Source: an uncultured Desulfobacteraceae bacterium
GTDB taxonomy: Bacteria > Desulfobacterota > Desulfobacteria > Desulfobacterales > JAABSP01
Direction of reading: 5' to 3'
DNA length: 34,964 nt
NCBI GenBank assembly: GCA_964396575.1
Contig: CAYNGG010000004.1
Location: forward strand, 1-34,964
The position numbers and the translations under genes are program-made. The notes beneath the pieces were generated by a model. It did no database searches and was not told where the DNA came from. It saw only the letters and a list, made by a program, of their open reading frames with translations. Shown piece by piece: positions 7,715-23,527 of the stretch; the stretch's first letter is position 1, and each line of letters opens with the position of its first letter.

Positions 7715-7965
7715 CCGGCCTGTCGGGCCTCGATGAATTCGGCCAGGGTTCGGATCGACTGGAGTGCCGGCCGGCCTTCCTTCATGTTGCGGATTTCCAC
7801 CCCGAAGTGGTGCTTGACCTGGAAGACCAGCTCCACCGCGTCGATGGAATCCAGGCCGAAGGCGTCGCCGAAGAGCGGGTCGTCGTCCCCGATGTCCTCG
7901 GGGCTCACATCGTCTAAGTCAAGCTCCCGGACGATGATTTCCTTGAGTCGAACCTTGATGTCCAT
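7711..7965 (-). CDS. Acyl carrier protein
   Basis: 84 aa and acidic, with the phosphopantetheine attachment motif FGLDSIDAVEL. Confidence 0.85.
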   Translation of the reverse strand: MDIKVRLKEIIVRELDLDDVSPEDIGDDDPLFGDAFGLDSIDAVELVFQVKHHFGVEIRNMKEGRPALQSIRTLAEFIEARQAG

Positions 7966-7969
7966 GGGG

Positions 7970-8995
7970 TCAGCCTTTCACCGGTGCCAGGCCGTTTCGG
8001 AGGGCGATGTCGAGGTCCCGGTAAATGGCGGTTTCCAGGTCCGCGCAGTCCCCGAGGATCTCGCCCAGGGCCGCATAGGTCTCGGACTCCGATGCCCGGC
8101 CCTTGCAGATCCGGGACCCGGCCACCGCGAAGTCCCGCCACCGGTCCCCGGCCCCGGTCATCCGAACCGACAGGGCATGGAGGGCATCAGAAGATAGAAG
8201 GTCCCCGGCTTCCTGGAGAAAGGCCGCAAAGAGAAACCGGAACCCGCCGCCGCCGGTGCCGATCTCCTCCTGCATCCGAATCAACTGGCCCAGGTAGAGG
8301 GTCGCCCGGTCTTCCCCCAGCCGGGCCGGCCACCGGGGGACGACTTTGGCCAGGTGACGGATGCCCCGGACCCCTAGAAAGGGTCCCGGTGCCCGGAGCA
8401 TGGTCCGGGCGGCCTCCCGCAACCCGGCCACAGCGGCTCCGGCCAGGTCGGGGGCCTCGGGGACGGCGGCCACCGTGTACATGTACCCCTTGGGCGGCAT
8501 GGGGCCCCTGGCGAACCTCGCCCGTTCGAGGGACTCGGGCGGGCAGCGCACCGGGTCCGGAAAGACCGGATCACTGATCAGATAGTCGCCGTCAACCTTG
8601 TCGAAGACCACGATGTTGTGCATGTTGAAGTGAAACCGGTACCGCCGGGGGAAATAGGAAAGCCAGTAGGCCCCGGTCCGGCATCCCACCGGAAATCCCT
8701 CGGCCAGCTTCCGGTCAAGCGCCGCCATGGCCCGGCCGGGGCGGCGGAACTTTTCCCGTTTCAGCTTGACCCCCAGGCGTTTGGTGACCCGGCCCATGAT
8801 CCCGCCGGTCCGGATGCGAAAGGCCGTCAGGGGAAGGTGGTTCAACCGGACAAAGGGGAGATAGCCGAAGAAGATCCCGGAGCCGATCCCGAAGGCCATG
8901 GCCTCGGTCAAGGGGATGCCGTAATGGGCCAGAAGGTTGGCGGTGACCCCGGTCTCGCAATGGGCCGACTGATGGTGGGCAAACGGAACGGACAT
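7970..8995 (-). CDS. BtrH_N / DUF4872-family protein (papain-like putative ACP-dependent acyltransferase or peptidase)
   Basis: ORF track 7970-9034. I prefer the ATG at 8995 (MSVPFAHHQSAHCETGVTANLL...), which resembles the conserved BtrH N-terminal HCxxG start. A later FNMHNIVVF histidine is present. The family call is from memory of the domain. Confidence 0.7.
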   Translation of the reverse strand: MSVPFAHHQSAHCETGVTANLLAHYGIPLTEAMAFGIGSGIFFGYLPFVRLNHLPLTAFRIRTGGIMGRVTKRLGVKLKREKFRRPGRAMAALDRKLAEGFPVGCRTGAYWLSYFPRRYRFHFNMHNIVVFDKVDGDYLISDPVFPDPVRCPPESLERARFARGPMPPKGYMYTVAAVPEAPDLAGAAVAGLREAARTMLRAPGPFLGVRGIRHLAKVVPRWPARLGEDRATLYLGQLIRMQEEIGTGGGGFRFLFAAFLQEAGDLLSSDALHALSVRMTGAGDRWRDFAVAGSRICKGRASESETYAALGEILGDCADLETAIYRDLDIALRNGLAPVKG

Positions 8996-9000
8996 GGCGG

Positions 9001-9411
9001 CTACATCGGCTCCGGTTCGTCCGGAACCCGGCAAAGGTCCGGGACGCTGAGGTTGAAAACCCGGGCGTACCGGGCCAGGATCTCCGGCTTGAGGCGGGCA
9101 AAGGGCCGCGGTTTCAGGTGGCGACGGACCCGCCAGCGGGAGAGGCCGGCGTAGTCGGCCAGGAGTCCGGGGTTCATGAGATGCCGGACCATGTGGTAGG
9201 CCAGCGGGCTCCTCTCCCCGGCCCGGACCGCCCGAACCGCCTCGTCGATCTCGGCGGTGATCACCTCCCAGGCCTGGGCGTTGGCGACGTTTTTGGGCTC
9301 CCAGCCGAGGCTGGAGACCTTGACGTACCGGCCCGTCTCGTCCACGGCATAGGCGATCTCCCGCATACCTTCGTTCATGCCGTCTTCCTGCGGCACATCA
9401 ATTGTTTTCAT
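9001..9411 (-). CDS. Small protein with C-terminal XRE-like helix-turn-helix; first gene of the minus-strand operon
   Basis: ORF track 9001-9507. I prefer the ATG at 9411 (MKTIDVPQEDG...) with GGAGA upstream. The C-terminal segment LLADYAGLSRWRVRRHL...ILARYARVFNLSVPDL looks HTH-like. No family recognised. Confidence 0.5.
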   Translation of the reverse strand: MKTIDVPQEDGMNEGMREIAYAVDETGRYVKVSSLGWEPKNVANAQAWEVITAEIDEAVRAVRAGERSPLAYHMVRHLMNPGLLADYAGLSRWRVRRHLKPRPFARLKPEILARYARVFNLSVPDLCRVPDEPEPM

Positions 9412-9478
9412 CCGTCTCCGTCCGCCCGCGTTTAAAATTCGATGTTGCCCGGTTCCGGGCTCCCCTCGAAAGCTTTTC

Positions 9479-9507
9479 AATATGGGCAAACTGATCGGAA
9501 AAGTCAA
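9479..9507 (-). promoter_or_regulatory. Candidate sigma70 promoter for the HTH-BtrH-ACP-KS-CLF operon
   Basis: Minus strand reads TTGACT (9507-9502), a 17-nt spacer, then CATATT (9484-9479), about 70 nt upstream of the ATG at 9411. Confidence 0.4.
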
Positions 9508-9534
9508 TATCTAGTGTTCATCCGATCTCCCCTC

Positions 9535-9601
9535 TCACGCCCCGCCAAATAGAGCCGCGTCACCTCCGGGTCGGCCAAAAGATCGGCGTCGGTTCCGGTG
9601 G
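9535..9601 (-). pseudogene. Decayed remnant of a livF-like 3' end
   Basis: By hand alignment, 57 of 67 positions plus a 1-nt gap match the 3' end of the intact livF (23528-23595), in the same orientation. It encodes ...TDADLLADPEVTRLYLAGR versus LivF ...TGADLLADPEVTRLYLGGA*. The 1-nt deletion removes the stop. Weak similarity may continue to about 9680. Confidence 0.6.
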
Positions 9602-9863
9602 ACAGGATTGCCGAGGCCAGGGAAAAGCAGAAAAGATCTTCCACGAAACCCAAACCGCCGACGGCAAGGCCGTGACGGTCTGGGGGATGGGAGCGCCGGA
9701 ATCCGCAACCCGGGCTTGACGAGGGAACCGGCTTATGGCAAAAACTTTCAAAACCCGCCGCCGATGCGCGGGGCTGACCGGAATCAGCGGGCCATGAGAC
9801 CCGCGAAGGATTCAGGACCTCGCCGGGCTTTCGGCTGGCCAACCATCAGGATATCCACCGACC

Positions 9864-11333
9864 ATGTTTGAGCAGACCTTCAAGAACATCGATGACGTCC
9901 TCTGGAAAGAGGCGGGGTGCGCCTCCGAGCTGGACTACACCGAGCAGACCTCGTGGATGCTCTTTCTCAAGTACCTCGACGACCTCGAACGGGAACGAAC
10001 GGCAACCGCCGGGCTGACCGGAAAGCCCCACCAGCGGATCATCGACCGGGAATTCCGCTGGTCCGGCTGGGCCGCGCCGAAAACGCGCGACGGGAGCTTC
10101 GACCACGACACCGCCATGACCGGCGACGACCTCATCCTCTTCGTCAACGGCAAGCTCTTTCCCTATCTCCAGGGCTTCAAGGAACGGGCATCGAGCCCGG
10201 ACACCATCGAATACAAGATCGGGGAGATCTTCGGGGAGATCCACAACAAGTTCCAGAGCGGATACAGTCTCCGGGACGCCCTCGAGCTGGTCGATGCCCT
10301 GAGCTTCCGGTCCCAGAAGGAAAAGCACGAGCTCTCCCACCTCTACGAGGCCAAAATCCGGAACATGGGCAACGCCGGCCGGAACGGGGGCGAATACTAT
10401 ACCCCGCGCCCGCTCATCCGGGCCATGATCCGCGTAGTCCGGCCCCGGATCGATGAGCGGATCTACGACGGCGCGGCCGGGTCGGCCGGGTTCCTCTGCG
10501 AAGCCCACGACTACCTCCGCTACGGCGGCGACGGCACCGGCAACAACCTCTCCACCGCCGACCTCGAAACCCTCCAGAACCGGACCTTCCACGCCAAGGA
10601 GAAAAAGAGCCTCCCTTACGTCATCGGCATCATGAACATGATTCTCCACGGGATCGAGGCCCCCAACATCGTCCACACCAACAGCCTCACCGAAAACATC
10701 AGCGACATCCAGGAAAAGGACCGGTTCGACGTCATCCTCGCCAACCCGCCCTTCGGCGGTAAGGAGCGCAAGGAGGTCCAACAGAACTTTCCCATCAAGA
10801 CCGGCGAGACCGCGTTCCTGTTTCTCCAGCACTTCATCAAATACCTGAAGGCCGGCGGCCGGGCCGCCGTGGTCATCAAAAACACCTTCCTGTCCAACTC
10901 CGACAACGCCTCCCGGTCCCTCCGCCGGGAGCTGCTCGAAACCTCCAACCTCCACACCGTCCTCGACTGCCCCGGCGGAACCTTCCTCGGCGCCGGGGTC
11001 AAGACCGTGGTCCTCTTCTTCGAGAAAGGCGCCCCGACCCGGAAAATCTGGTACTACCAGCTCGATCCCGGCCGGAGCCTCGGCAAAACCAACCCCTTGA
11101 ACGACGATGACCTGAAAGAATTCGTCGAGCTTCAGGCGAGCTTTTCGGACTCGGACCATTCCTGGACCGTGGATGTCAAGGACGTGGACCCGGAGACGAT
11201 GGATCTCTCGGTGAGGAATCCCAACAAGGAAGACGAGAGACCCCTTAGGGACCCGGAGGTGATCATCAACGAAATCCAGATGCTCGATAAGGAGAGTGAG
11301 GAGATTTTGGAAGAGATTCGGGGGATGTTATGA
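9864..11333 (+). CDS. hsdM: Type I R-M system methyltransferase subunit HsdM (N6-adenine)
   Basis: 489 aa with an HsdM_N-like start, GEYYTPRPLIRAMI, YDGAAGSAGFL and the catalytic ILANPPFGGKE. The stop overlaps the hsdS start (ATGA). Confidence 0.95.
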   Translation: MFEQTFKNIDDVLWKEAGCASELDYTEQTSWMLFLKYLDDLERERTATAGLTGKPHQRIIDREFRWSGWAAPKTRDGSFDHDTAMTGDDLILFVNGKLFPYLQGFKERASSPDTIEYKIGEIFGEIHNKFQSGYSLRDALELVDALSFRSQKEKHELSHLYEAKIRNMGNAGRNGGEYYTPRPLIRAMIRVVRPRIDERIYDGAAGSAGFLCEAHDYLRYGGDGTGNNLSTADLETLQNRTFHAKEKKSLPYVIGIMNMILHGIEAPNIVHTNSLTENISDIQEKDRFDVILANPPFGGKERKEVQQNFPIKTGETAFLFLQHFIKYLKAGGRAAVVIKNTFLSNSDNASRSLRRELLETSNLHTVLDCPGGTFLGAGVKTVVLFFEKGAPTRKIWYYQLDPGRSLGKTNPLNDDDLKEFVELQASFSDSDHSWTVDVKDVDPETMDLSVRNPNKEDERPLRDPEVIINEIQMLDKESEEILEEIRGML

Positions 11334-12511
11334 TGGAGGGGTGGGAAACAAAAACACTCGGCGAGATTTGTAAGATATACCAACCCAAGACGATTTCTAA
11401 AAAACAACTCAAACAAAACGGAGAATACCCTGTCTTTGGTGCAAATGGAATCATTGGGCGATATGATAAATACAACCACAAGATACCACAAGTGTTGATA
11501 ACATGCCGTGGCGCTACATGCGGTCATGTAAATGTTTCTTTGCCCAAGTCTTGGATTACAGGCAATGCAATGGTAGTTCGCCCTTTGTCTGATGAATTGG
11601 ATTTGCAATATCTTGAATATTTTTGTCGTGGAGGTATCGACTTTTCTACTGTGATCAGTGGTGCTGCACAACCGCAGATCACAAGAAAATCCTTATCTCC
11701 GGTTACAATATCTTACCCCCCGCTCCCCGAACAAAAGCGCATCGTCGCCATTCTTGATGAAGCTTTCGCGGGGATCGAAAAGGCAGTCGCCAACACTGAA
11801 AAGAACCTGGCGAATGCGAGGGAGTTGTTTGAGAGTTATTTGAATTCGATGTTTAGCGATAAAGATAACGGTTGGATCGAAACTCGCTTAGGTGACGTCG
11901 CAAAAACTCAATATGGACTTTCTAAACCAATGAATGAAACTGGCAAGGGATTTAAGATTTTTCGTATGGGCGAGGTCCAAGACGGAAGGCTCCATGATAC
12001 AGGCTCCATGAAATTCGCTGACATTGATAAATATGAGTTTGAAAAATATAGACTTCGTGAGAATGATGTCTTGTTTAACCGCACGAACAGTTTCGAATTG
12101 GTTGGAAAGGTAGGAATATTTAAGCTTAAAGGGGACTATTGCTTTGCTTCTTATTTGATTCGAGTACTTCCAGACAAAAAGATGCTATTGCCTGAGTTTC
12201 TCAACTATTTTATGTGCTCTAACATTTTTCAGACAACCATTAAGAAAAAAGCATCACGGTCGATTAATCAGGCAAATATCAATGCGAAAATTCTATCAAA
12301 CGAAGTTATTCGTTTTCCACAATCGCTCAAAACGCAAGCTTCAATCGTTGGTAAGCTTGACTCTATCCGAAATGAATCTGAACAACTGCAATCCATTTAC
12401 CAAAACAAATTCACCGCCCTCTCCGAGCTCAAGCAATCCCTCCTCCAGAAAGCCTTTTCCGGCGAGCTGACCGCCAACCCCGGCAAGGTCTTGAACGAGG
12501 CCGCCGCATGA
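11330..12511 (+). CDS. hsdS: Type I R-M specificity subunit HsdS (two TRDs)
   Basis: 393 aa. The conserved central helix is LPEQKRIVAILDEAFAGIEKAVANTEKNLANARELFESYL. The C-terminal helix is IVGKLDSIRNESEQLQSIYQNKFTALSELKQSLLQKAFSGEL. Both TRDs are visibly AT-richer than the flanks. Confidence 0.9.
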   Translation: MMEGWETKTLGEICKIYQPKTISKKQLKQNGEYPVFGANGIIGRYDKYNHKIPQVLITCRGATCGHVNVSLPKSWITGNAMVVRPLSDELDLQYLEYFCRGGIDFSTVISGAAQPQITRKSLSPVTISYPPLPEQKRIVAILDEAFAGIEKAVANTEKNLANARELFESYLNSMFSDKDNGWIETRLGDVAKTQYGLSKPMNETGKGFKIFRMGEVQDGRLHDTGSMKFADIDKYEFEKYRLRENDVLFNRTNSFELVGKVGIFKLKGDYCFASYLIRVLPDKKMLLPEFLNYFMCSNIFQTTIKKKASRSINQANINAKILSNEVIRFPQSLKTQASIVGKLDSIRNESEQLQSIYQNKFTALSELKQSLLQKAFSGELTANPGKVLNEAAA

Positions 12512-12512
12512 A
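12497..12512 (+). repeat. Copy 1 of the 16-nt junction repeat GAGGCCGCCGCATGAA (hsdS stop / rhuM-like start)
   Basis: Exact 16-mer, also present at 12904-12919. The extended match is CTTGA(acga)GGCCGCCGCATGAA. Confidence 0.95.
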
Positions 12513-12918
12513 TGACAATACCCAGCAGGCCGTTGTCATTTATAAAAATGATGATAAGCAGGCAGAGGTTCATCTTGACACTCGGGAGCTTACGGTTTGG
12601 CTGTCGCAAGCCCGGATGGCCCGGCTATTCGGGCGGGATCAATCCGTGATTTCAAGGCATATAGGCAATGTTTTCAAGGAAGGTGAGCTGGAAAAGAAAA
12701 GCAATATGCAAAAAAGGCATATTTCAAATTCAGACAAGCCGGTGGAATTCTACAATCTTGATGTCATCATATCCGTCGGATACCGCGTAAAATCCAAAGA
12801 GGGTACTCGTTTCCGCCAATGGGCCACCCGCATCCCGCGCGAACACCTGACTCAGGGCTGGATTTTGAGCCAGCGGCGCTTTGAAGCCAACGCCCGCGAG
12901 CTTGAGGCCGCCGCATGA
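12508..12918 (+). CDS. Truncated RhuM-family protein (N-terminal ~130 aa only)
   Basis: 136 aa. VWLSQARMARLFGRDQSVISRHIGNVFKEGEL...FYNLDVIISVGYRVKSKEGTRFRQWAT matches the RhuM N-terminal region as I recall it. Full-length members are roughly 2.5x longer. ATGA overlaps on both sides. Confidence 0.7.
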   Translation: MNDNTQQAVVIYKNDDKQAEVHLDTRELTVWLSQARMARLFGRDQSVISRHIGNVFKEGELEKKSNMQKRHISNSDKPVEFYNLDVIISVGYRVKSKEGTRFRQWATRIPREHLTQGWILSQRRFEANARELEAAA

Positions 12919-12919
12919 A
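12904..12919 (+). repeat. Copy 2 of the 16-nt junction repeat GAGGCCGCCGCATGAA (rhuM-like stop / hsdR start)
   Basis: Exact repeat of 12497-12512. Confidence 0.95.
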
Positions 12920-15302
12920 CGAAGCCGAGACCCGGGCCGAGCTGATTGATCCGGCGTTGAAGGCCGCCGGGTGGGGCGTGGTGGCCGGGAGCCGGATTCA
13001 TCGGGAGGTGATCGCGCCGGGGCGGCTGCTCGGGGCGGGAAAGCAGGCGAGTTCCGAGGTCGCCGACTACGTGCTCTTCTACAGGGGCCAGAAGCTCGGC
13101 GTGATCGAGGCCAAGCGGCGGGACCTCCCGGACACCGAGGGTCTGGCTCAGGCCAAGCGGTATGCCGATCGCTTAGAGACCCGGTTCGCGTTTTCCACCA
13201 ACGGCGTCGGGATCTACCGGGCGGACATGCGGACCAACGCGGAGGGGTACATCGATGCGTGGCCGTCACCGGAGCGGCTCTGGGCTGAGACCTTTGCCGA
13301 GGCGAACGTCTGGCGGGAGCGGTTCGGGGCGGTCCCGTTCGAGGACCGGGGCGGCTACTGGCAGACCCGGTATTACCAGCACAACGCCATCAATCTGACC
13401 CTCGAAGCCATCGCGGCCGGCCGGGACCGGATGCTTCTGACCCTGGCCACCGGGACCGGCAAGACCGCCATTGCCTTTCAGATCGCCTGGAAGCTCTTCC
13501 ACGCCCGGTGGAGCCTGGCGGCCCGGCAATCGGGCGAGCCCGGCCGCCGGCCCCGGATTCTCTTCCTGGCCGACCGGAACAACCTCGCCGACCAGGCATT
13601 CAACGATTTTTCGGCCTTTCCCGAGGACGCGATGGTCCGGATCGCCCCGGATCTCATCCGGAAAAAGGGCCGGGTCCCGAAGAACGGGAGCATCTTCTTT
13701 ACCATCTTCCAGACCTTCATGACCGGCCGGGACGCCGATGGAAACCCCGCGCCCAATTTCGGCGAATACCCGCCGGACTTCTTCGACTTCATCGTCATTG
13801 ACGAGTGCCACCGGGGCGGGGCCAATGACGAGAGCACCTGGCGGGAGATCCTGAATTATTTCCACCCGGCGGTCCAGCTCGGGCTCACGGCCACGCCCAA
13901 ACGTCGGCACAACGTGGACACCTACGCCTATTTTGGCGAGCCGGTTTACACCTATTCCTTGAAGGCGGGGATCAACGACGGCTACCTCACCCCGTTCAAG
14001 GTCCGTCAGTTCGCCACCACCCTCGACGAGTACGTTTACACCCCGGACGACGACGTGATCGAGGGCGAGATCGAGGAAGGGCGGCGGTACACCGAGGACG
14101 ACTTCAACCGGGTCATCGAGATGATGCAGCGGGAGCGGTACCGGGTCGGGCTCTTCATGGATGAGATCAACCCGAGGGACAAGACCCTGGTCTTCTGCGC
14201 CACCCAGGCGCATGCCCTGGCGGTCCGGGACCTGATCAACCAGATCAAGCAGGTCCCCGACCCCAACTACTGCGTCCGGGTGACCGCCAACGACGGCAAG
14301 GCCGGCGATCAGTTTTTGAAACAGTTCCGGGACAATGAAAAGACCATCCCGACCATCCTCACCAGCTCCCAGAAGCTCTCCACCGGCGTGGATGCCCGGA
14401 ATGTCCGGAACATCGTCCTCATGCGCCCGGTCCGGTCGATGATCGAGTTCAAGCAGATCATCGGGCGGGGAACCCGGCTCTTCGACGGCAAGGACTATTT
14501 CACGATCTACGATTTCGTCCGGGCCCACGTCCATTTCAGCGACCCGGAGTGGGACGGCGAGCCCCTGGCCCCGGAGCCCTGCCCGAGGTGCGGCGGGATT
14601 CCCTGCACCTGCGCGTCCGCATCGCCTTCACCCTGTCCGGTCTGCGGCCGGTTGCCGTGCGTCTGTGAACCGGAGCCCGAGGGGCCTTGTCCCCGGTGTG
14701 GTGAGCGGCCCTGCGTCTGTCGGCGGCAACGGAAGGTTCGGGTGGGGCTGGCCGACGGCAAGGAGCGGACCCTCCAGCACATCGCGGCCACCACCTTCTG
14801 GAGCCCGGACGGCCGGCCCATGTCGGCGGCTCAGTTTGTCGAGCAGCTTTTCGGGGACCTGCCCGGCCTCTTCAGGGACGAAGACGAGCTCCGGGCCTTG
14901 TGGGGCCGGCCGGATACCCGGAAGGCGCTCCTGGACGGACTGGCGGAAAAGGGCTATGGCGAGGACCAGCTCTTGGAGATCGGCCGGATGATCGAGGCGG
15001 AAAAGAGCGACCTCTACGACGTCCTGGCCTACATCGCGTTTGCGCTTCCCCCGATCACCCGGGCCGACCGGGTGGACGCCCGCCGGGACCGGATTTTCAG
15101 CGGGTACGACTTCCGCCGGCAGGAGTTTCTGGGCTTTGTATTGGGTCACTATATCGAGCGCGGCGTGGGCGAGCTGGACCCCGATAAGCTCCCGAGGCTC
15201 ATCGAGCTGAAATACCACGGCATCGGCGACGCGGTCGCCGAGCTCGGGAGCCCCGAAAACATCCGGGAGGTCTTCGTCGATTTCCAGCGGCATTTGTATT
15301 GA
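12915..15302 (+). CDS. hsdR: Type I restriction endonuclease subunit HsdR (EcoEI-like C-terminal domain)
   Basis: 795 aa with the HSDR_N start MNEAETRAELIDPALKAAGW. The PD-(D/E)xK motif is ADYVLF...GVIEAKR. Helicase motifs are LATGTGKT and IVIDECHRG. A Cys-rich insert spans aa 556-602. The C-terminal domain is YGEDQLLEIGRMIEAEKSDLYDVLAYIAF... Confidence 0.95.
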   Translation: MNEAETRAELIDPALKAAGWGVVAGSRIHREVIAPGRLLGAGKQASSEVADYVLFYRGQKLGVIEAKRRDLPDTEGLAQAKRYADRLETRFAFSTNGVGIYRADMRTNAEGYIDAWPSPERLWAETFAEANVWRERFGAVPFEDRGGYWQTRYYQHNAINLTLEAIAAGRDRMLLTLATGTGKTAIAFQIAWKLFHARWSLAARQSGEPGRRPRILFLADRNNLADQAFNDFSAFPEDAMVRIAPDLIRKKGRVPKNGSIFFTIFQTFMTGRDADGNPAPNFGEYPPDFFDFIVIDECHRGGANDESTWREILNYFHPAVQLGLTATPKRRHNVDTYAYFGEPVYTYSLKAGINDGYLTPFKVRQFATTLDEYVYTPDDDVIEGEIEEGRRYTEDDFNRVIEMMQRERYRVGLFMDEINPRDKTLVFCATQAHALAVRDLINQIKQVPDPNYCVRVTANDGKAGDQFLKQFRDNEKTIPTILTSSQKLSTGVDARNVRNIVLMRPVRSMIEFKQIIGRGTRLFDGKDYFTIYDFVRAHVHFSDPEWDGEPLAPEPCPRCGGIPCTCASASPSPCPVCGRLPCVCEPEPEGPCPRCGERPCVCRRQRKVRVGLADGKERTLQHIAATTFWSPDGRPMSAAQFVEQLFGDLPGLFRDEDELRALWGRPDTRKALLDGLAEKGYGEDQLLEIGRMIEAEKSDLYDVLAYIAFALPPITRADRVDARRDRIFSGYDFRRQEFLGFVLGHYIERGVGELDPDKLPRLIELKYHGIGDAVAELGSPENIREVFVDFQRHLY

Positions 15303-15472
15303 GGGGGCGGCCGACCCGCCACCGGATGCCCCGGCCCGTTCGGATCGGCTCGGGCGGCAATGCCCCTGGGGACTCCCGGCGCTGCCTTTGGCCGGGGTTG
15401 GGGTTGTCTTGATGAACCGGGGACTTCACCCGAGACGGGCCGGGGGGCTTACTGATCCGTCCTCCGTGGAAA
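14951..15472 (+). repeat. 522-bp direct repeat, copy 1 (last 352 nt of hsdR plus 170 nt downstream)
   Basis: A base-by-base comparison with 18929-19450 found a single mismatch (C at 14966 versus G at 18944). The offset is 3,978 bp. Confidence 0.97.
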
Positions 15473-15615
15473 GAATCGGTGGCATATCGATACTGGACTA
15501 ACCCCCTGTCATCTGATATATGGGGTTCATGTATCGACCAGTTTTCACTTTGCATTGGCCCCGCCAAACGATTGTTTCGCTATTCAAACCGAAAAGTAAG
15601 GGCGAATAAGCTGCT

Positions 15616-18600
15616 ATGTCGCATATCACGGTAATCCACAATGCTTTGCAAGCCTTGGGCGCTGAGGTCACGGAAAAGATGGCCCAGCTCCTTCAGGGAG
15701 AGCCTGAAGACCAATTGCGTGGTCCCTTTGAAAGCTTCATGAAAGCCATCGCGGACGGATTCGGGGGGTTAATCGTATGTACCGGTGAAACCCCGCTCCC
15801 AGATCGAATTGGCCGTCCGGACTATGCGGTCCACTTGAACGATCAGCTCACCGGTTACGTTGAGCTCAAAGCGCCCGGCACCGGCGCTCTCAAGTCCCGG
15901 TTCAAGGGCCACAATCGAAAGCAATTTAAACGGTTTACAGCTATCCCCAACATCCTTTACACGGATGGCAATGAATGGGCGATCTATCGTGGGGGTGAGC
16001 AGGTAGGTAAGGCCGTCCGGCTGGTCGGTGATGTCAGCTCGGACGGCAAAGCAGCCGCCAACCGGGACGACGCGCAAAACCTCGAACGGCTTCTGTCGGA
16101 TTTCCTATCCTGGGCACCTTTTATCCCAACCGATCGTTCGGGCAGAATTGACCTCAAAGGATTTGCCGCCATGCTTGCCCCGCTGTGCCGGATGCTTCGA
16201 GATGACGTTGCCGATGCCCTTGATGCCTCATCATCGCCTCTCGTTGACATGGCCGCGGACTGGCGAAGCATCCTTTTCCCGGATGCGCCGGATGACCAAT
16301 TCGCCGATGCTTACGCACAGACGGTAACCTTTGCCCTGCTTCTCGGTCGAAGCGAGGGAGCCAACCCGCTGACGCTTAAAGCAGCCATCAACACCCTTCT
16401 GTCGAAGCACAGTCTCCTCTCTCGCGCGCTTGAAGTCCTTACCGACCCCGCCGCTCAAAGCGAGATCAAGGCTTCAGTGGACCTCTTGTTGAGGGTCATT
16501 GCCGCCGTGCCGCCCCGCACGCTTGCCTATCCAGAGGACCCATGGCTTTATTTCTACGAAGACTTTCTCGCCGTCTATGATCCAAAGCTGCGTAAGGATG
16601 CGGGAGCGTATTATACTCCCATCGAGGTGGTCCGGTATCAAGTGCGGCTGATAGACCACTTGCTCGTCAATCGCCTCGGAAAGCCTTTGGGGTTCGCCGA
16701 CTCCGGCGTCATCACACTCGATCCGGCCACCGGCACCGGCACGTATCTGCTTATGGTGATCGAGCATGCGCTCAGCCGGATTGAAAAAGAGCAAGGAGCC
16801 GGCGCGGTTCCGGGACAGGCTACGGCGCTGGCCCAAAACCTGTATGGCTTCGAGCTGATGGTTGGCCCGTATGCCGTCAGCGAGCTACGGATCAGCCGGG
16901 CGCTCCGGGACCGGGAAGCCGACCTGCCGGAAGACGGCATCAACATCTACCTGACCGATAGCCTCGAAAGCCCAAACGCCGAGCCCCAAACCCCTTTTCA
17001 TTTTTACAAGCCCATTGCCAAGCAGCATGCCAAGGCCCTGGAAGTCAAAAACAACATTCCGGTCATCGTCTGCCTGGGAAACCCCCCGTATGACCGACAT
17101 GAAGCGGCATCAGGCGAAAACCGGTCACGGACCGGTGGCTGGGTCAGATGGGGGGACACCGAGAACGCGGAAGATGCTATCCTGAAAGACTTCCGCGCCC
17201 CCGCCATTGCGGCGGGGCATGGCTTGCACGTCAAAAACCTTTACAATCTTTACGTCTATTTCTGGAGATGGGCTTTATATAAGGTCTTTGAGCACGAGAC
17301 GGCGCTCGGGCCGGGGGTGGTCAGCTTTATCAGCGCATCGAGCTATCTGGATGGCAGCGCCTTTTGCGGGATGCGTCAGCATCTGCGTGAAATCTGCGAC
17401 GAGATATGGATACTCGACCTGGGCGGCGAAGGGCGCGGCACCCGTAAAAACGACAATGTCTTTTCCATTCAAACGCCGGTCGCCATTGCGGTGGCCGTGC
17501 GGTACAAGGAAGCCGCCACCTCAAGACCCGCCGTGGTTCACTACTCACTGCTGGAAGGCGACCGTGACGCTAAGCTCGCCGCACTCGATGGTATCGATCA
17601 ATTCTCAAAAGTTGAATGGCGGGATTGTCCGGATGACTGGCAGGCTCCGTTCAGACCAGAAGGCATCGGCGGCTACTTTCAATGGCCGCCGCTGACCGAT
17701 CTCATGCCGTGGCAGCATTCGGGGTGCGAAATTAAACGAACTTGGCCGATATGCCACGACCCAAAGACATTGAAGGCGCGATGGAATGCTTTGATTAGAA
17801 CAAAAGACCGTGCATCGGCATTTAAAGAAACTCGGGATCGGGATATCCATTCAGAATGCAAACAGCTTTCAACTATTAAAAGCGATACTACCCCTATCAA
17901 CGAGTTATCATTTGACGCGCCGGTGCCTCCCGTTGTCCGATATGCGTTTCGGTCATTTGATCGCCAATGGGTCTTTGCGGACAACCGCTTGGGGGATTAT
18001 TTCCGCCCTCCGCTTTGGCGCACCCACGGGCCAAGCCAGGTTTACATCGCAAGCTCTTTGATTCTTGGCCTTGGTACCGGACCGTCATTGAGTGGCGCTT
18101 CATCAATTCCTGATAGACACTATTTTTCAGGAAGGGGCGGCAAAGACATCCTTCCCCTTTACAGAACCCAAGATGCCACCGAAGCGAACCTTCCGCCCGG
18201 CATCCTGGATTTGCTCACCAAGGTATATCATCGAAAGCTAACGCCGGAAGACTTCCTTGCCTATGTGTACGGCGTCCTGGCCCACCCCGCCTTTACCGCA
18301 CATTTTCATAAGGAGTTGGAAAGCCGAGAGCTTCGTGTGCCCATCACCAGGGATGCATCGCTTTTTGAGGCTGTCCGTAAGACGGGGGCGCGTCTTCTCT
18401 GGCTTCACACCTACGGTGAGCGTTTTGTGCCGAAAGGCATGAAACAGGGCCAGGTGCCACGGGGCGAGGCGAAATGCACCCGGGCGGTACCGGGTGATCC
18501 ATCCGGATATCCCGAAACCTTTGGATATGCCGAAGCCGATCAGACCCTTCGGGTTGGATCGGGCGAGTTTACCCCCGTTTCCCGCGAAGTCTATGATTTC

Positions 18601-18909
18601 GAGGTCTCAGGGCTCAAGGTTGTCCAGTCTTGGCTCAAATATCGGATAAAAAATGGGGCTGGCAAGAAATCTTCGCCGTTGGACGACATCCGCCCTGAAC
18701 GCTGGACCAGTCAGCACACGACCGAGCTGCTTGAGCTGCTGTGGGTGCTTGAGGAGACGGTCAAGGTTTATCCGGAGCAGGAAAGGCTTCTGGAAGCAGT
18801 TGTAAATGGGGACTGCTTACTGGCTGACGAGCTCCCAGATGTCTCCCCTGACATGCGGAAACCACCGCGGCCCAGGAAAGGATTGGAGAATTTGCAAATG
18901 TGTGATTAG
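15616..18909 (+). CDS. Single-polypeptide Type IIG/IIL R-M enzyme (MmeI-like N-terminal nuclease, gamma-class N6-adenine MTase, Type ISP-like C-terminal target-recognition region)
   Basis: 1097 aa. D69...E83-x-K85 (GRPDYAVH...GYVELKAPG) is placed like the MmeI D-EXK motif. MTase motifs are AYYTPIEVVRY, LDPATGTGTYL and CLGNPPYDRHE. The C-terminal segments RYAFRSFDRQWVF and DILPLYR recall Type ISP/IIG TRDs. GC is lower than in the flanks. Confidence 0.8.
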   Translation: MSHITVIHNALQALGAEVTEKMAQLLQGEPEDQLRGPFESFMKAIADGFGGLIVCTGETPLPDRIGRPDYAVHLNDQLTGYVELKAPGTGALKSRFKGHNRKQFKRFTAIPNILYTDGNEWAIYRGGEQVGKAVRLVGDVSSDGKAAANRDDAQNLERLLSDFLSWAPFIPTDRSGRIDLKGFAAMLAPLCRMLRDDVADALDASSSPLVDMAADWRSILFPDAPDDQFADAYAQTVTFALLLGRSEGANPLTLKAAINTLLSKHSLLSRALEVLTDPAAQSEIKASVDLLLRVIAAVPPRTLAYPEDPWLYFYEDFLAVYDPKLRKDAGAYYTPIEVVRYQVRLIDHLLVNRLGKPLGFADSGVITLDPATGTGTYLLMVIEHALSRIEKEQGAGAVPGQATALAQNLYGFELMVGPYAVSELRISRALRDREADLPEDGINIYLTDSLESPNAEPQTPFHFYKPIAKQHAKALEVKNNIPVIVCLGNPPYDRHEAASGENRSRTGGWVRWGDTENAEDAILKDFRAPAIAAGHGLHVKNLYNLYVYFWRWALYKVFEHETALGPGVVSFISASSYLDGSAFCGMRQHLREICDEIWILDLGGEGRGTRKNDNVFSIQTPVAIAVAVRYKEAATSRPAVVHYSLLEGDRDAKLAALDGIDQFSKVEWRDCPDDWQAPFRPEGIGGYFQWPPLTDLMPWQHSGCEIKRTWPICHDPKTLKARWNALIRTKDRASAFKETRDRDIHSECKQLSTIKSDTTPINELSFDAPVPPVVRYAFRSFDRQWVFADNRLGDYFRPPLWRTHGPSQVYIASSLILGLGTGPSLSGASSIPDRHYFSGRGGKDILPLYRTQDATEANLPPGILDLLTKVYHRKLTPEDFLAYVYGVLAHPAFTAHFHKELESRELRVPITRDASLFEAVRKTGARLLWLHTYGERFVPKGMKQGQVPRGEAKCTRAVPGDPSGYPETFGYAEADQTLRVGSGEFTPVSREVYDFEVSGLKVVQSWLKYRIKNGAGKKSSPLDDIRPERWTSQHTTELLELLWVLEETVKVYPEQERLLEAVVNGDCLLADELPDVSPDMRKPPRPRKGLENLQMCD

Positions 18910-18926
18910 GCGCTCACCATCTGAGC

Positions 18927-19280
18927 ATGGGCTATGGCGAGGAGCAGCTCTTGGAGATCGGCCGGATGATCGAGGCGGAAAAGAGCGACCTCTACGACGT
19001 CCTGGCCTACATCGCGTTTGCGCTTCCCCCGATCACCCGGGCCGACCGGGTGGACGCCCGCCGGGACCGGATTTTCAGCGGGTACGACTTCCGCCGGCAG
19101 GAGTTTCTGGGCTTTGTATTGGGTCACTATATCGAGCGCGGCGTGGGCGAGCTGGACCCCGATAAGCTCCCGAGGCTCATCGAGCTGAAATACCACGGCA
19201 TCGGCGACGCGGTCGCCGAGCTCGGGAGCCCCGAAAACATCCGGGAGGTCTTCGTCGATTTCCAGCGGCATTTGTATTGA
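18927..19280 (+). pseudogene. Detached duplicate of the HsdR C-terminal (EcoEI_R_C-like) domain; possibly expressed as a 117-aa ORF
   Basis: The cassette/repeat junction reads gcATGGGCTATGGC, supplying an ATG in frame with the duplicated hsdR codons. The ORF differs from HsdR residues 679-795 by the junction Met and one D-to-E change. It starts 17 nt after the Type IIG stop. Confidence 0.6.
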
Positions 19281-19450
19281 GGGGGCGGCCGACCCGCCAC
19301 CGGATGCCCCGGCCCGTTCGGATCGGCTCGGGCGGCAATGCCCCTGGGGACTCCCGGCGCTGCCTTTGGCCGGGGTTGGGGTTGTCTTGATGAACCGGGG
19401 ACTTCACCCGAGACGGGCCGGGGGGCTTACTGATCCGTCCTCCGTGGAAA
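18929..19450 (+). repeat. 522-bp direct repeat, copy 2
   Basis: 521/522 identical to 14951-15472. Homology ends abruptly at both junctions. Confidence 0.97.
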
Positions 19451-19724
19451 CGGTTGCTTGAGCTGGTGTTGCCGGCATTGGATGAATTGCCGGATTCGAT
19501 GGCCCGGACCCTGGGCGGAGAAACGGGGCCGGCGATTTCTGGGAACATCGCGTCAGTTTTGACATTGACGTCTTTTTTGAGCACGCGGGGGCTTTGAAGC
19601 TGCTGTCTCCGAATAAAAACGGGGCGATAAGACAATTGTCCGACAATCTGCAACAACCCGGACATTATCTCAAAATTGAAAGGCCGGAAGGCGACATTGA
19701 TTTTCTTGTCACGTCGATTTCGAT

Positions 19725-20465
19725 GTGTCCGGAGCCCCGGCGGTGAGCCTCTTCACCCGCCTCCTGTCCGATCTCGCGTCGGGACGGCGGGAAACCGCCT
19801 TTCCCCGGGAGCTGATCCCGGATGAGATCGGCATTGCTTACATGGGCGCGGACCTGACTGTCCCCACGGTGATTGAGGCCTATGTCCGGGGATGCTATCC
19901 CTACACCGGGAGCGATCCCATCCCCTGGCTTTCCCCCGATCCCCGCCTGGTACTCTTCCCCGACGACTTCCGGGCCTCGCGCCGGTTGAAGCGGTCGGCC
20001 CGTCAGAACCGCTTTACCATCCGGTTCGACACCGATTTTACCGAGGTGATGCGGTGCTGTGCCACCGTCCTCCGGGAGGATCAGCCCGGAACCTGGATCA
20101 CCGACAACATGATCGAGATCTACACCGAGCTTTTCGACCTCCGGATCGCCCACTGCGTCTCGGTTTACAACCGGGCGGGGACCCTTTGCGGCGGGCTTTA
20201 CGGACTCACCTTCGGCCGGGCCTTTTTCGGGGAATCGATGTTTTCGACCGCCCCGAACACCTCCAAGCTCGCCCTCTACGCCCTTTGCCGTCGGTTGTCG
20301 GCCTGGCGGTTCGATATGATCGACTGCCAGGAAGTCTCCGCTCACCTGATGCGCCTGGGGGCCGTCCCCTTGAGCCGGCGGGAATACCTGACCCGGCTCC
20401 ACCTCACCCTTCAGTACCCTTCCCGGCACACAAGCTGGGCGGACCTTGTCGAGAGTCCGGGCTGA
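19725..20465 (+). CDS. aat: Leucyl/phenylalanyl-tRNA--protein transferase
   Basis: 246 aa (GTG start in the ORF track). Aat-like motifs are YVRGCYPY, PWLSPDPRLVLFP, GTWITDNMIEIY, HCVSVY, GGLYGLTFGRAFFGESMFS and MIDCQ. Confidence 0.85.
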   Translation: MSGAPAVSLFTRLLSDLASGRRETAFPRELIPDEIGIAYMGADLTVPTVIEAYVRGCYPYTGSDPIPWLSPDPRLVLFPDDFRASRRLKRSARQNRFTIRFDTDFTEVMRCCATVLREDQPGTWITDNMIEIYTELFDLRIAHCVSVYNRAGTLCGGLYGLTFGRAFFGESMFSTAPNTSKLALYALCRRLSAWRFDMIDCQEVSAHLMRLGAVPLSRREYLTRLHLTLQYPSRHTSWADLVESPG

Positions 20466-20479
20466 TGACATCGGGCCGG

Positions 20480-20830
20480 CGTCGGGATCGGCTATCGGCC
20501 CTCGAATTCCGGGTGGCCGAGCAGACCGAGGAATAGCAGCGAGCCGGCCGCCAGGTCGCCTGCATCACCGAAGCATCCACGGCGCCGGACGACGGGATCG
20601 GGAGATTGTCCGACAGCTTTTGGCCTTCAGCCGGAAGGGGGCCCTGACGGTCAAGATCATCGACCTGAATGCCATTCTCATGGGGTTCGAACAGCTCCTC
20701 CGGCGGGCCATCCGGGAGGACATCGACGTCGCACTCGCCCCCGCCGCGACCGGAGAGCGCCGCAGGCTGGTTCGGCAAAACTCTGGAGGGGTTAAACATC
20801 CCAGACCGGCTTTACGCCCGCGACGCTGTA
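20480..20830 (+). pseudogene. Degenerate relic of a sensor histidine kinase (HisKA-to-HATPase linker region)
   Basis: Frame 1 reads ...IVRQLLAFSRKGALTVKIIDLNAILMGFEQLLRRAIREDIDVAL (about 20605-20760). This is a stereotyped kinase segment. The flanking kinase motifs are missing or frame-shifted (RLSALEFRVAEQTEE* upstream, LYARDAV in another frame downstream). Confidence 0.4.
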
Positions 20831-20916
20831 AGATCCTAAATATCGTAACCTTATCATTCGACTGGGCCGACCTCAGCGCAGCTATATGAAGGCCGGCAGC
20901 TTACCGGTGGACCTGA

Positions 20917-21753
20917 TCAAGATTTGTTATGGGGGTCGCCATGACATTGAATACAGTTCATTTTCGAAAGCGTGTTCTCCATTTCCCCCCCTTTCCCGTG
21001 GCAGGAAAGGCAGTCGGCGACGTCTTCTGACACTGCCGCTGAGTACAACGATTTAAATCGGTTGTCGAAATGGTCGTTCAAGATTTGAATGGCAAACGCC
21101 ACGGAATCCCCGGTCAGGCGGGCGCAGCGTTCCTTGCGCTCGACACAGGTAATCTCGGCCTCTGTTTCTCTGCACCAATTCGTGGCGGAAACATGACACA
21201 TGGGCGAGCCGCTTTTACAGGGCTTGATCTTCTTATCGTGCTTATTAACCGCGTATTTTTTTTCGACGGCATATTGATTGCTCAAATCCGTAGGCAGCAA
21301 GGACTGCGAATACCATTCGAAAAGCTCGTTGGTCAGCAAATCCGCGGTTTTTTTATCGCAAACCAGTGATATGGCGGCCGCGGGCCCATTCAGGGCGCCG
21401 CACAACATGCCCCAACCGGCTCCGCCTCCATGGCCGTAGATCATGATTTCCGCCGGCAGGCTGTGATAGGGGCCGCCGACCTTGGCCTGAAGGGCGCTGA
21501 GAATGGCGTGAAAGGCGGCATAGGAACAGCCTTTACCACTCCAATAGGCGTCATGGCCCGCTTTCCGGCCCGCTTCCGGGTCCAGCTTCGCATAAGGCCA
21601 CGGCCACTCATACGTTTCAGTGGTTCTGGCAAACACCTTTGTTGACGACAACGCCGTCATCCCGGAAACCGCGCCGGCGGCACCCGCGCTCGCTATCGCC
21701 CCGTATTTCAATGAACGCTTCATGAAGCTTCTTCTTGTTGCAGCCGTTTCCAT
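20917..21753 (-). CDS. Tat-exported C_GCAxxG_C_C-family redox protein with C-terminal dihaem c domain (split-Soret cytochrome c-like)
   Basis: 278 aa with a twin-arginine signal (TRRSFMKRSLKYGAIASAGAAGA), GWGMLCGALNG (CGAxxG), and two CxxCH motifs (CLSCH, CIQCH). AAGGAGA RBS upstream. AT-richer than the core genes. Confidence 0.75.
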   Translation of the reverse strand: METAATRRSFMKRSLKYGAIASAGAAGAVSGMTALSSTKVFARTTETYEWPWPYAKLDPEAGRKAGHDAYWSGKGCSYAAFHAILSALQAKVGGPYHSLPAEIMIYGHGGGAGWGMLCGALNGPAAAISLVCDKKTADLLTNELFEWYSQSLLPTDLSNQYAVEKKYAVNKHDKKIKPCKSGSPMCHVSATNWCRETEAEITCVERKERCARLTGDSVAFAIQILNDHFDNRFKSLYSAAVSEDVADCLSCHGKGGEMENTLSKMNCIQCHGDPHNKS

Positions 21754-22079
21754 TGGTATCTCCTTTCTTTCGTTGGGTTTTTCCGCAAAGCGCGGATATG
21801 GAGCCGATTATGACAATTTGCGGGGAAGAGGCGACGCGGCAAAGCGCTGAAGACCGGATCGAAGAAAAAACGAGATAAGGGGATTGAGAAGAAATACAAC
21901 TAAAAAGTAGCGACGCCCCGCATCGCACATTAAGTCAATTATTATGGTGAAGTAAGCGGGAACGTCAAATTAAAAAAAGTGATAACCTCATATTTCCATA
22001 AAGAAAAATAATAAGGCAATAAGTCTGGGCTATGGTTATCTTTTGATCCGGTATAAGTAAGGTCAGTATCCGCGGGGTG

Positions 22080-22991
22080 TCAGGGAGAGATAACCGTTTG
22101 AGATCGAGATAAGAAGGCAATCAGGTCGTGCAAAGTTTCAGGCAGATCTTCCTGCTTGCGGTAGCTTAAGAAAAACGACTGCATCGGCCGGCCTTCCCGC
22201 AGGTAGATTTCGGCAAAAAGCCCCTCTTCGATGTCTTTCCGAATCATAAATTCAGGTAAAAAGGAAATTCCATATCCGTCCTTGACCAGATTTTTTATGG
22301 CCTCATTGCTGTCGGATTCACTGATAACCGAAAAGTGTTTCAGGCTCATCTTATGTTTGGCCAGGAAACGCTCGAATTCAATTCGACAGCCGGAGCTCTT
22401 TTCCCTCAATACTAATCGGTAGTTTCGCAATTGTTCAAGGTCGATGGTCCCGGTCGGCGCTTGAGCCTTTGCCGTCTCAAATAGAATCAAAGGCGCCCGA
22501 AGCAGCTTTTTTTTAGAGAGAAAACGGTTCTTAGGATCCAAGCCGGTAACCCCGATATCGTATTCTCCGGACAGCAGTCCGTTGAAGACTTCATCACATT
22601 TGGTGATAGACAGCGCCAGATGGGCTTCCGGATGCGCATCCCGAAAGGCCGTCAGCCCCATCGGCAGAAGATGCTCGCCGGCAATGCAGCAGGCCCCGAT
22701 GCGCACTTCACGCAGATGATAGGCGCTGAAGTTTTCCATATCCCGAATAATCGACTGCTCAAGTTTCATCAGCTCTTCGGCATGTTGATATAGATTCTTT
22801 CCGGCCTTCGTCAGCCGGATACGCCCCGAATGTGTCCTGATGAAAAGCGCCGTTTGAAACAATTGCTCGATTTTCTGAATTTGGAGGCTTACGGCCGGCT
22901 GGGTGAGCAGTAGCGAATTGGCGGCCTGGGTGAAGCTTCCCGTCTCAGCGACCTTCGCAAACACTTTTATGGAAAAGAGATTTAAATTCAT
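22080..22991 (-). CDS. LysR-family transcriptional regulator
   Basis: 303 aa with the N-terminal wHTH FAKVAETGSFTQAANSLLLTQPAVSLQIQKIEQ and a LysR substrate-binding-like remainder. Confidence 0.9.
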   Translation of the reverse strand: MNLNLFSIKVFAKVAETGSFTQAANSLLLTQPAVSLQIQKIEQLFQTALFIRTHSGRIRLTKAGKNLYQHAEELMKLEQSIIRDMENFSAYHLREVRIGACCIAGEHLLPMGLTAFRDAHPEAHLALSITKCDEVFNGLLSGEYDIGVTGLDPKNRFLSKKKLLRAPLILFETAKAQAPTGTIDLEQLRNYRLVLREKSSGCRIEFERFLAKHKMSLKHFSVISESDSNEAIKNLVKDGYGISFLPEFMIRKDIEEGLFAEIYLREGRPMQSFFLSYRKQEDLPETLHDLIAFLSRSQTVISP

Positions 22992-23273
22992 TGCTTATCT
23001 TTCATCACCGTAGTGGTAGATGTCCTCGAAAAGGGAAGGAAGATATTGATAGGGGCACAAGGAACAGATTCGGCGGGGTTTATCTCTACTTTCATTTCAA
23101 GAGCCAAAAATGCTCATTGCCAATCAACCTGACTCATATACCATTTTCGCTTTTCTGGTTGTACCCTTTTTTTAAATGCATCCGGATCAATATCGTCGTA
23201 CCCAAGATGCCTTATTTTTTTGCTTTACCGTGAAAATTCATGACGCCCGTGCTCCAATCGAAAAAACCGGAAC

Positions 23274-23303
23274 CACGAATGAACACGAATAGGCACGAAT
23301 GAG
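23274..23303 (+). repeat. Three tandem 10-bp units CACGAAT-nnn
   Basis: cacgaatgaa / cacgaatagg / cacgaatgag, starting at 23274, 23284 and 23294. An inverted half-site TTCGTG lies at 23341-23346. Confidence 0.85.
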
Positions 23304-23346
23304 AATTGTTTCTTGAAAACTATTTAAATTTATAATTTTTTTCGTG

Positions 23347-23364
23347 TTTTTAGTGTGTTTCGCG
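23347..23364 (+). repeat. 18-nt direct repeat TTTTTAGTGTGTTTCGCG, copy 1
   Basis: Exact second copy at 23490-23507 (143-bp offset). Confidence 0.9.
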
Positions 23365-23507: not shown

Positions 23508-23527
23508 CCGGAGTCCACTGCTTTCGC

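Follow-up and report, generated by a model that had tools for sequence, protein, structure and literature searches.

A Type IIG restriction-modification gene between duplicated hsdR 3' ends in an uncultured Desulfobacteraceae bacterium fits the pattern of insertion with long target duplication

Restriction-modification (R-M) genes without any mobility gene have been found flanked by direct repeats of 30 to ~420 bp that represent the duplicated target, an arrangement defined by Furuta, Abe & Kobayashi (2010, NAR 38:2428, PMC2853133) as "insertion with long target duplication", after what appears to be the first description of the class by Nobusato et al. (2000, Gene 259:99). The repeats often span a start or stop codon, so that the target gene survives, and the insertions, which cover R-M Types I-IV and come mostly from naturally competent species, are sometimes located within other R-M genes (PMC2853133). 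The mechanism is unknown, and the class was originally framed as tied to double-strand breakage (PMC2853133). R-M units lying between long direct repeats can apparently amplify (Sadykov 2003, as cited in PMC2853133). Here, we describe a locus of this kind in a 34,964-nt stretch of DNA from an uncultured Desulfobacteraceae bacterium (GenBank assembly GCA_964396575.1, contig CAYNGG010000004.1), which is the entire NCBI contig and is called the window below. A Type IIG R-M gene lies there directly behind a Type I R-M operon (hsdMSR), bracketed by two copies of the 3' end of hsdR, and our results show a layout that fits the long-target-duplication class and is shared by every assembly of the lineage that could be sampled.

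The left copy of the repeat (14951..15472, plus strand) runs into the insert and the right copy (18929..19450, plus strand) runs into native downstream DNA. At an offset of 3,978 nt the two copies are identical over 522 nt except for one mismatch, 14966 C versus 18944 G, and each consists of the final 352 nt of hsdR followed by 170 nt of non-coding DNA; since the duplication takes in both the 352 nt and the 170-nt flank, hsdR stays intact. Outside both copies, on either side, identity is at background level at once in a base-by-base comparison, and a self-BLAST of the whole window returned this repeat as the only one in the 35 kb. The inserted segment (15473..18928, plus strand; 3,456 nt) holds a 143-nt leader, a single open reading frame (ORF) at 15616-18909 and a 19-nt tail, so the Type IIG gene is its sole gene, and its G+C content is 0.559 against 0.653 for hsdR and 0.659 for the repeat. 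The hallmarks of transposons and integrase islands (inverted ends or an att core, a short target duplication, a recombinase) were not found at the locus: there are no terminal inverted repeats at the ends of the insert (alignment score 6 versus a shuffle mean of 7.0), no tRNA genes or members of the Rfam families searched at the locus, and neither an integrase nor a transposase gene in the stretch from 9.5 to 23.5 kb. A sequence-only reading of the window had already reported the duplication with its single mismatch and 352 + 170 nt make-up, the abrupt ends of homology, the lower G+C and composition of the insert and the lack of inverted repeats and recombinase; the first of these proved exact to the base, and the others were borne out by the comparisons, alignment score and gene scans just given. 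Two short matches near the repeats, an 8-nt match (AGGCGCTC) to the left of both copies and a GGAAA common to the areas near the repeat ends, were judged to be due to chance.

The inserted gene (15616..18909, plus strand) codes for a single polypeptide of 1097 aa with an N-terminal PD-ExK nuclease motif, a gamma-class N6-adenine methyltransferase (N6_Mtase) and a Type_ISP_C domain at residues 695-1041; Pfam found no helicase domain in the protein, and the PADLOC model REase_MTase_IIG matched it over its full length (1168 bits). Alignment with 17 homologues showed that the nuclease residues D69, E83 and K85 are invariant, as are motif I (DPAxGTG, residues 369-375) and motif IV (NPPY, residues 489-492) of the methyltransferase. 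Because the nuclease and methyltransferase motifs are invariant, the PADLOC match is full length and a specificity domain is present, the product looks like an intact single-chain restriction-modification enzyme. Its nearest homologues are ~70% identical and the family is spread across many phyla, with plasmid homologues in Thermus and Oceanithermus that are 43-45% identical; no phage match to the protein was found.

By its definition, the class comprises inserts with both restriction and modification functions, shorter than 20 kb and free of prophage, integrase and transposase, between direct repeats of more than 30 bp that are not multi-copy, with an empty-site relative for comparison. Here, both functions reside in one fused gene for nuclease, methyltransferase and target-recognition domain whose catalytic motifs are invariant, the insert measures 3,456 nt and carries one gene only, and the repeat of 522 nt is single within the 35-kb window, the span over which this was checked. 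As for the empty-site relative, the collections held no cassette-free relative, and the 160 loci fetched for comparison share no flank DNA with the window. The locus thus fits an insertion with long target duplication on every point save the empty-site comparison, and it can be regarded as a good example of a known phenomenon.

The layout was present in four other public assemblies of the lineage, with 98.6-99.9% identity. The JGI contig Ga0153773_1000756 (L001) is 99.86% identical across 22 kb, and contig_4434 of ENA assembly ERZ1757541 (L008; 143 kb, 98.6% identical) threads both repeat copies; the way it is named and the indels scattered along it hint that it may have been assembled from long reads. 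The locus is divided among three MEGAHIT pieces in ENA assembly ERZ922772, one running from the upstream genes into the repeat (L002), one spanning repeat, insert and repeat (L006, 4,141 bp) and one running from the repeat into the downstream flank (L005), while ENA assembly ERZ922773 contributes a contig of 3,921 bp (L007). Each of these four contigs crosses one repeat boundary with copy-specific single-nucleotide polymorphisms (SNPs), all four junctions are crossed by independent contigs, and the five agreeing assemblies come from at least three projects. At repeat position 16, where the edge mismatch lies, the right copy has a G in the window, L001 and L006 alike, which points to a single ancestral event. 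The layout is real and vertically inherited, and the duplication is older than the split of the sampled strains.

Divergence between the two copies was not the same in all assemblies. The window and L001 each show one difference between copies, and the four sites that separate these two strains have the same state in both copies of each strain, which could reflect gene conversion or, equally, a short-read collapse of the repeat interior that kept the edge mismatch. The copies of L008, on the other hand, differ by 12 substitutions and 7 indel columns in 525 nt and those of ERZ922772 by 6 substitutions in 373 nt; since separately resolved copies differ more, the figure of one in 522 is unfit for dating the event. 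When all copies in the lineage were considered, 8 of the 9 variable coding sites were at third codon positions and 7 were synonymous, including sites private to the right copy, and in L008 the non-coding 170 nt are diverging ~10 times faster than the coding part (10/170 versus 2/352). Most differences, both copy-to-copy and strain-to-strain, fall in a hypervariable G+C-rich patch 25-60 nt past the hsdR stop (15325-15360 and 19303-19338, repeat positions ~375-410), and the MEGAHIT contigs L002, L006 and L005 terminate at or beside this patch.

The coding part of the right copy is contained in a predicted 117-aa ORF (18927..19280, plus strand), a C-terminal remnant of hsdR that matches profile positions 46-163 of Pfam EcoEI_R_C. 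Its ATG straddles the insert/repeat junction, and the ORF is annotated as a gene in the JGI and ENA assemblies. Variable sites private to the right copy fall at the third codon position in 4 of 5 cases within it, and its coding part changes between strains as slowly as the functional end of hsdR does. Conversion between the copies, an allelic origin or selection on a small protein could each account for this slow, third-position change.

One homologous anchor plus one illegitimate joint can insert foreign DNA without a recombinase, in a process named homology-facilitated illegitimate recombination that was reportedly described in natural transformation by de Vries and Wackernagel and by Prudhomme et al., both in 2002. 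Its classical products are insertions accompanied by deletions, with 3-8 nt of microhomology at the illegitimate joint. For the locus described here, our favoured route is a homology-anchored insertion of a foreign IIG gene behind the hsdMSR operon, a reading that we hold with evenly balanced confidence. Incoming DNA that already carried an hsdR 3' end, the 170 nt and the IIG gene would have met a resident, near-identical hsd operon. One homologous exchange would have taken place in or upstream of the repeat, and one illegitimate joint would have fused the end of the insert to the resident hsdR at 14951, now 18928/18929. The right repeat copy would then be the old 3' end of the resident, and the right-hand repeat boundary (15472/19450) would mark the limit of homology between donor and recipient. 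The incoming DNA may have been linear, as in homology-facilitated illegitimate recombination, or circular, as in Campbell-type integration, with the same product in either case, and no sister chromosome would be needed if it was linear. Afterwards, the copies may have exchanged sequence by gene conversion, and RecA-dependent loss or amplification of the cassette would be possible in principle.

Parallels to this route were found in a survey of 80 metagenome loci (926 kb) that carry hsdR homologues 63-82% identical to the one in the window; in 57 of these loci, the sequence extends at least 1 kb past the end of hsdR. Neither a duplicated coding 3' end of hsdR nor an IIG gene was present in any of the 80 loci (57 with this downstream span). 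The 926 kb contained 14 direct-repeat pairs of at least 80 nt, and 6 of the 14 abut an hsdR end. Three of these six are duplications of the hsdR 5' end, in which a cassette lies between a 5' fragment of 122-250 nt and the full hsdR. The cassette is a 410-aa gene of unknown function in L027 (226-347 / 1590-1711; 122 nt, 96.7% identity), a Gp49/HTH toxin-antitoxin pair in L058 (181-380 / 1042-1241; 200 nt, 87.5%) and a Phd/PIN toxin-antitoxin pair in L087 (6386-6635 / 7473-7722; 250 nt, 94.8%). In each of the three, the hsdR start codon marks the beginning of homology (-2, 0 and +1 nt), and third codon positions account for 14 of the 25 differences between copies in L058 (p = 0.016) and for 10 of the 14 in L087 (p = 0.004). 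This third-position bias is what the joining of two diverged hsdR alleles would give, and together with the three boundaries at the start codon it points to such a joining, as far as can be judged from the sequences. The window is the mirror image of these cases, with an arbitrary joint inside hsdR and the other boundary 170 nt past the stop. The remaining three repeats are of lower identity (79-83%, 94-181 nt) and begin in the 3' flank, 14-90 nt past the hsdR stop. Two of them (L022, 12421-12514 / 14276-14369; L072, 12345-12522 / 14479-14658) enclose 1.8-2.1 kb of ORFs with no Pfam match, and the third (L041, 3156-3249 / 7619-7706) has its copies ~4.4 kb apart and further copies of the repeat in the locus. 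One might read these cases as a sign that hsdR ends serve as homology landing pads, through which defence or addiction cassettes move between diverged Type I loci without a recombinase, a generalization that we put forward as doubtful. Just as tentative is the cargo that such landing pads would have received, a solo IIG gene here and toxin-antitoxin pairs and the 410-aa gene of unknown function elsewhere.

Several observations weigh against homology-anchored insertion and have to be considered with it. Neither an empty site nor a donor configuration nor a circular form turned up in our searches, so the recombination route is one that we infer from its product. There is no microhomology at the illegitimate joint, on the one side where this is testable. 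The near-identity of the copies and the foreign G+C of the insert together argue against the homology arm having accompanied the gene from a distant donor; with a native arm and a foreign gene, an earlier and unexplained step must have placed the gene beside an hsdR 3' end. In addition, repeat collapse by short-read assemblers may be part of the reason why the copies look nearly identical in the window and L001, and gene conversion with functional hsdR alleles, or selection acting on the 117-aa ORF, could be the source of the third-position bias instead. Finally, the 5'-end parallels concern different genes and the opposite end of hsdR.

The alternative that survives best is a one-step, non-homologous insertion, in which a foreign linear IIG fragment would have been taken up with duplication of the target in situ and without a homology arm, by capture between sister copies, by template switching during replication or at breaks with a stagger of 522 nt. 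We consider this a serious rival, if a rather less likely one. Such a capture would agree with the contrast between an insert of foreign composition and a repeat that is native and nearly identical in its two copies, and with the double-strand breakage around which the class was originally framed (PMC2853133). It also draws on a survey of 80 IIG homologue loci from GTDB, 71 of them testable, for direct repeats of at least 40 nt and at least 80% identity that flank the gene within 2 kb. Such repeats were present in 11 of 71 loci versus 1/60 and 0/59 shifted control windows (Fisher p = 1e-4), and inverted repeats flanked the gene in 1/71. Four of the 11 are tandem paralogue pairs and two are multi-copy repeats, which leaves 5/71 loci (p = 0.03), against 1/119 control windows, with single-copy direct repeats of 44-224 nt round the gene. 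They include a 3.5-kb cassette with the IIG gene alone between 52-nt repeats in a Nitrospiraceae metagenome-assembled genome (L089, 9745-9796 / 13341-13392) and an ORF6N gene plus IIG gene between 224-nt repeats that adjoin a ResIII helicase gene (L134, 1458-1677 / 6166-6380). However, non-homologous capture leaves unexplained the start-codon boundaries in the three 5'-end cases and the third-position divergence in two of them, because a duplicate decaying in place would not be expected to change chiefly at synonymous sites, and no microhomology was seen at the junctions. We also know of no established mechanism for staggers of hundreds of bases. As for the tandem pairs, each of the four loci (L140, L145, L162, L168) has two full-length IIG paralogues whose conserved ends share 92-98% identity across 118-202 nt, a similarity that could support domain or allele exchange.

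An improbable alternative is that a free circle of 3,978 bp enters and leaves the chromosome by RecA-dependent single crossover, so that it works as a gain/loss switch and carries the gene from one Type I locus to another. The topology of the product is exactly that of Campbell-type integration, direct repeats of 522 nt are good RecA substrates, and amplification of R-M units between long repeats has apparently been seen, all of which speak for this model. The searches speak against it. For an empty site, we used exact-protein look-ups of hsdR, the 117-aa ORF and one downstream gene, clusters at 90% identity and the 80 hsdR loci, and no empty site or excised form was found: five of five sampled assemblies keep the cassette. 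No member from outside this lineage was present in the 90%-identity clusters to which hsdR, hsdM, the IIG gene and the 117-aa ORF belong, and the non-coding part of the repeat, the leader and the downstream flank had no BLAST match in the 160 fetched loci. The host lineage is itself sparsely sampled, its peptidase M1 having one relative at 91% identity and the next at <=59%. Contig L002, whose sequence enters the repeat for 371 nt, was considered as a strain with an empty site and rejected, because contig ends of this kind agree with how an assembly graph treats a two-copy repeat with copy-specific SNPs; it ends ~126 nt past the last distinguishing SNP with k = 127, and the same sample has the cassette contig L006. 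No circular contig made of the insert and one repeat was present among the available contigs. L006 is linear, since its overlapping ends differ by 6 substitutions and 2 indel columns of 165, and L007 was also judged linear, the repeat parts of these two contigs either differing or not overlapping. Every junction of a circle would also be present in the chromosome, which prevents the current short-read data from showing one, and short contigs can neither prove nor exclude it. The 12 substitutions between the copies of L008 indicate long residence rather than frequent cycling, and an EcoEI-type hsdR stands beside the IIG homologue in 0/80 loci, which does not favour a vehicle between Type I loci. 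On the side of the donor, no IIG relative above ~70% identity was found, the plasmid homologues being <=45% identical, and the predicted donor arrangement (an hsdR 3' end, flank and IIG gene with no right copy) was not seen in the loci examined.

These results also bear on what the sequence-only reading had proposed beyond the structure itself. Its Campbell-type integration is retained in part: an insertion driven by hsdR homology receives indirect support from L027, L058 and L087, but the circle was not found. None is needed, because a linear fragment that enters by a homologous crossover and an illegitimate joint would leave the same product. The gain/loss switch that it had envisaged did not find support, with no empty site, excised form or circle and a layout that is fixed among the available relatives, all of them close; switching of the cassette between the repeats is neither shown nor excluded. 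The comparison of related strains that it had suggested gave no cassette-free hsdR locus in the five assemblies. Its idea of the hsdR 3' end as a landing pad failed for this gene family, with supporting cases in 0/80 IIG loci and 0/80 hsdR loci, and a survey for defence genes flanked by duplicated hsdR 3' ends, also of its suggestion, was negative for coding 3' ends (0/80), whereas three loci had cassettes at duplicated 5' ends. That reading had also missed that the signature is an already described class (PMC2853133).

The surroundings of the locus show another repeat. The ~80 nt just upstream of hsdM (9534-9612) are ~80% identical to 23526-23605, the 3' end of an ABC-ATPase gene (23528-24238, minus strand), and the remnant C-terminal peptide ADLLADPEVTRLYLAG matches 15 of the last 16 residues of the product of that gene (ADLLADPEVTRLYLGG). 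With copies of this 3' end on either side, a 13.9-kb block (hsdMSR, IIG, aat, C_GCAxxG, LysR) lies between direct copies without an integrase, and from the alignment it resembles a second, outer target-duplication-like signature.

Very little speaks for a site-specific recombinase or transposase that acted in trans or has since been lost, with the repeat as an att-like site or target duplication, and we consider it most improbable. Direct repeats do flank many integrated elements, and the outer 13.9-kb block lies between copies of a gene 3' end; however, 522 nt is far above the size of att cores or transposon target duplications, the insert has no inverted ends, there is no tRNA at the locus, and the region from 9.5 to 23.5 kb is free of integrase and transposase genes. 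An assembly artefact, in which a mis-join would have created the duplication or misplaced the insert, is hardly credible and was rejected: the window and L001 do thread a 522-nt repeat with one mismatch 16 nt from its edge, which resembles a collapsed de Bruijn repeat, but the duplication raised as a possible error by the sequence-only reading stands in four other assemblies, the five agree, separate contigs cross every one of the four junctions and L008 resolves two copies.

The Type I operon that received the insertion is complete, with M, S and R subunits present at full length according to Pfam, PADLOC and alignment. It consists of hsdM (9864..11333, plus strand; Pfam N6_Mtase and HsdM_N, PADLOC MTase_I 1.4e-160), hsdS (11330..12511, plus strand; G+C 0.425, two stretches of Pfam Methylase_S, PADLOC Specificity_I) and hsdR (12915..15302, plus strand; 795 aa), which is intact, with Pfam HSDR_N, ResIII, Helicase_C and EcoEI_R_C reaching residue 795 and homologues that align across residues 1-795; the final 352 nt of this gene are those that fall within the left repeat copy. 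Between hsdS and hsdR lies a RhuM-family gene of 136 aa (12508..12918, plus strand; Pfam Virulence_RhuM, positions 9-70 of 252; PADLOC PDC-S05, 8.8e-55). It covers only the N-terminal part of the Pfam model, its start and stop codons overlap with hsdS and hsdR, and PDC-S05 is a PADLOC candidate family; RhuM-like genes occupy the same position in the hsdR-homologue loci L013, L054, L070 and L078. Promoter and terminator scans of the region stayed at chance level, and the RNA fold of the 170-nt non-coding flank was not unusual (z = 0.36). A putative terminator-like hairpin with a T-run, predicted by consensus scan only, is located 100 nt past the right repeat copy (19550..19581, plus strand) and may mark the point where the hsd transcript originally ended.

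The L008 strain departs from the window in several other respects. Its hsdS (5713-6896), hsdR (7300-9686) and IIG gene (10001-13296) are each split by frameshifts, and a cluster of changes is found at window positions 18055-18131, which means either that both systems are decaying in this strain or that the sequence contains errors. L008 is also without a 3.9-kb segment, window 19486-23363, which holds aat, an 89-aa ORF, C_GCAxxG and LysR and where G+C falls to 0.43-0.51; the breakpoint (13870-13873) is 35 nt past the right repeat copy and has no repeat at the joint. Further on, L008 diverges within the ABC-ATPase gene (window 24011) into glycosyltransferase genes.

Many widely spread restriction and defence genes carry no mobility genes, and the long-target-duplication class has been known since 2000 without a mechanism. 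To this class the present locus adds a clean example with a large repeat (522 nt), seen in several assemblies of an uncultured lineage. Taken with the three 5'-end cases, it suggests a testable route that combines homologous exchange in a conserved restriction gene with an illegitimate joint. If that route were general, conserved defence genes would be entry points for new defence genes, which would help to explain the growth of defence islands. The practical consequence of this locus alone is modest, loss or amplification of the cassette being possible in principle with no event seen, and most of the interest lies in the hint that hsdR ends may act as homology anchors for cassettes that have no recombinase.

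Comparison with known systems places both the enzyme and its insertion. DrdV, MmeI and the Thermus-family plasmid enzymes likewise combine a nuclease, a gamma-class N6-adenine methyltransferase and a specificity domain in one chain of ~1,100 aa, whereas the solved structures that match the IIG protein in the PDB (DrdV 7lo5, LlaBIII and LlaGI) do so in the methyltransferase region only. Accessory genes are known to ride in Type I loci, such as PrrC in EcoprrI and RhuM-like genes (PMC12707154), and the IIG gene resembles them as a second defence or addiction gene riding on a Type I operon. Those genes, however, sit between hsd genes, have no duplicated hsd ends and cooperate with the Type I enzyme, and no functional link of the IIG enzyme to the hsd system was seen. 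The two direct copies that bracket the insert and would be reversible by RecA recall Campbell-type integration, as in suicide-plasmid co-integrates and IS26 translocatable units, with the difference that no circular form, replicon or insertion sequence was found and that the shared segment is the end of a host gene. Homology-facilitated illegitimate recombination would account for one repeat boundary that falls where homology ends and another that lies at no particular site within hsdR, but here the joint lies upstream of the end of the anchor, which gives a duplication, and the testable side has no microhomology. With insertions with long target duplication the locus shares an R-M target, a repeat across the stop codon, an insert of deviant G+C and the lack of a mobility gene, while its repeat of 522 nt exceeds the longest one listed (~420 nt) and its host belongs to an uncultured Desulfobacterota-like lineage.

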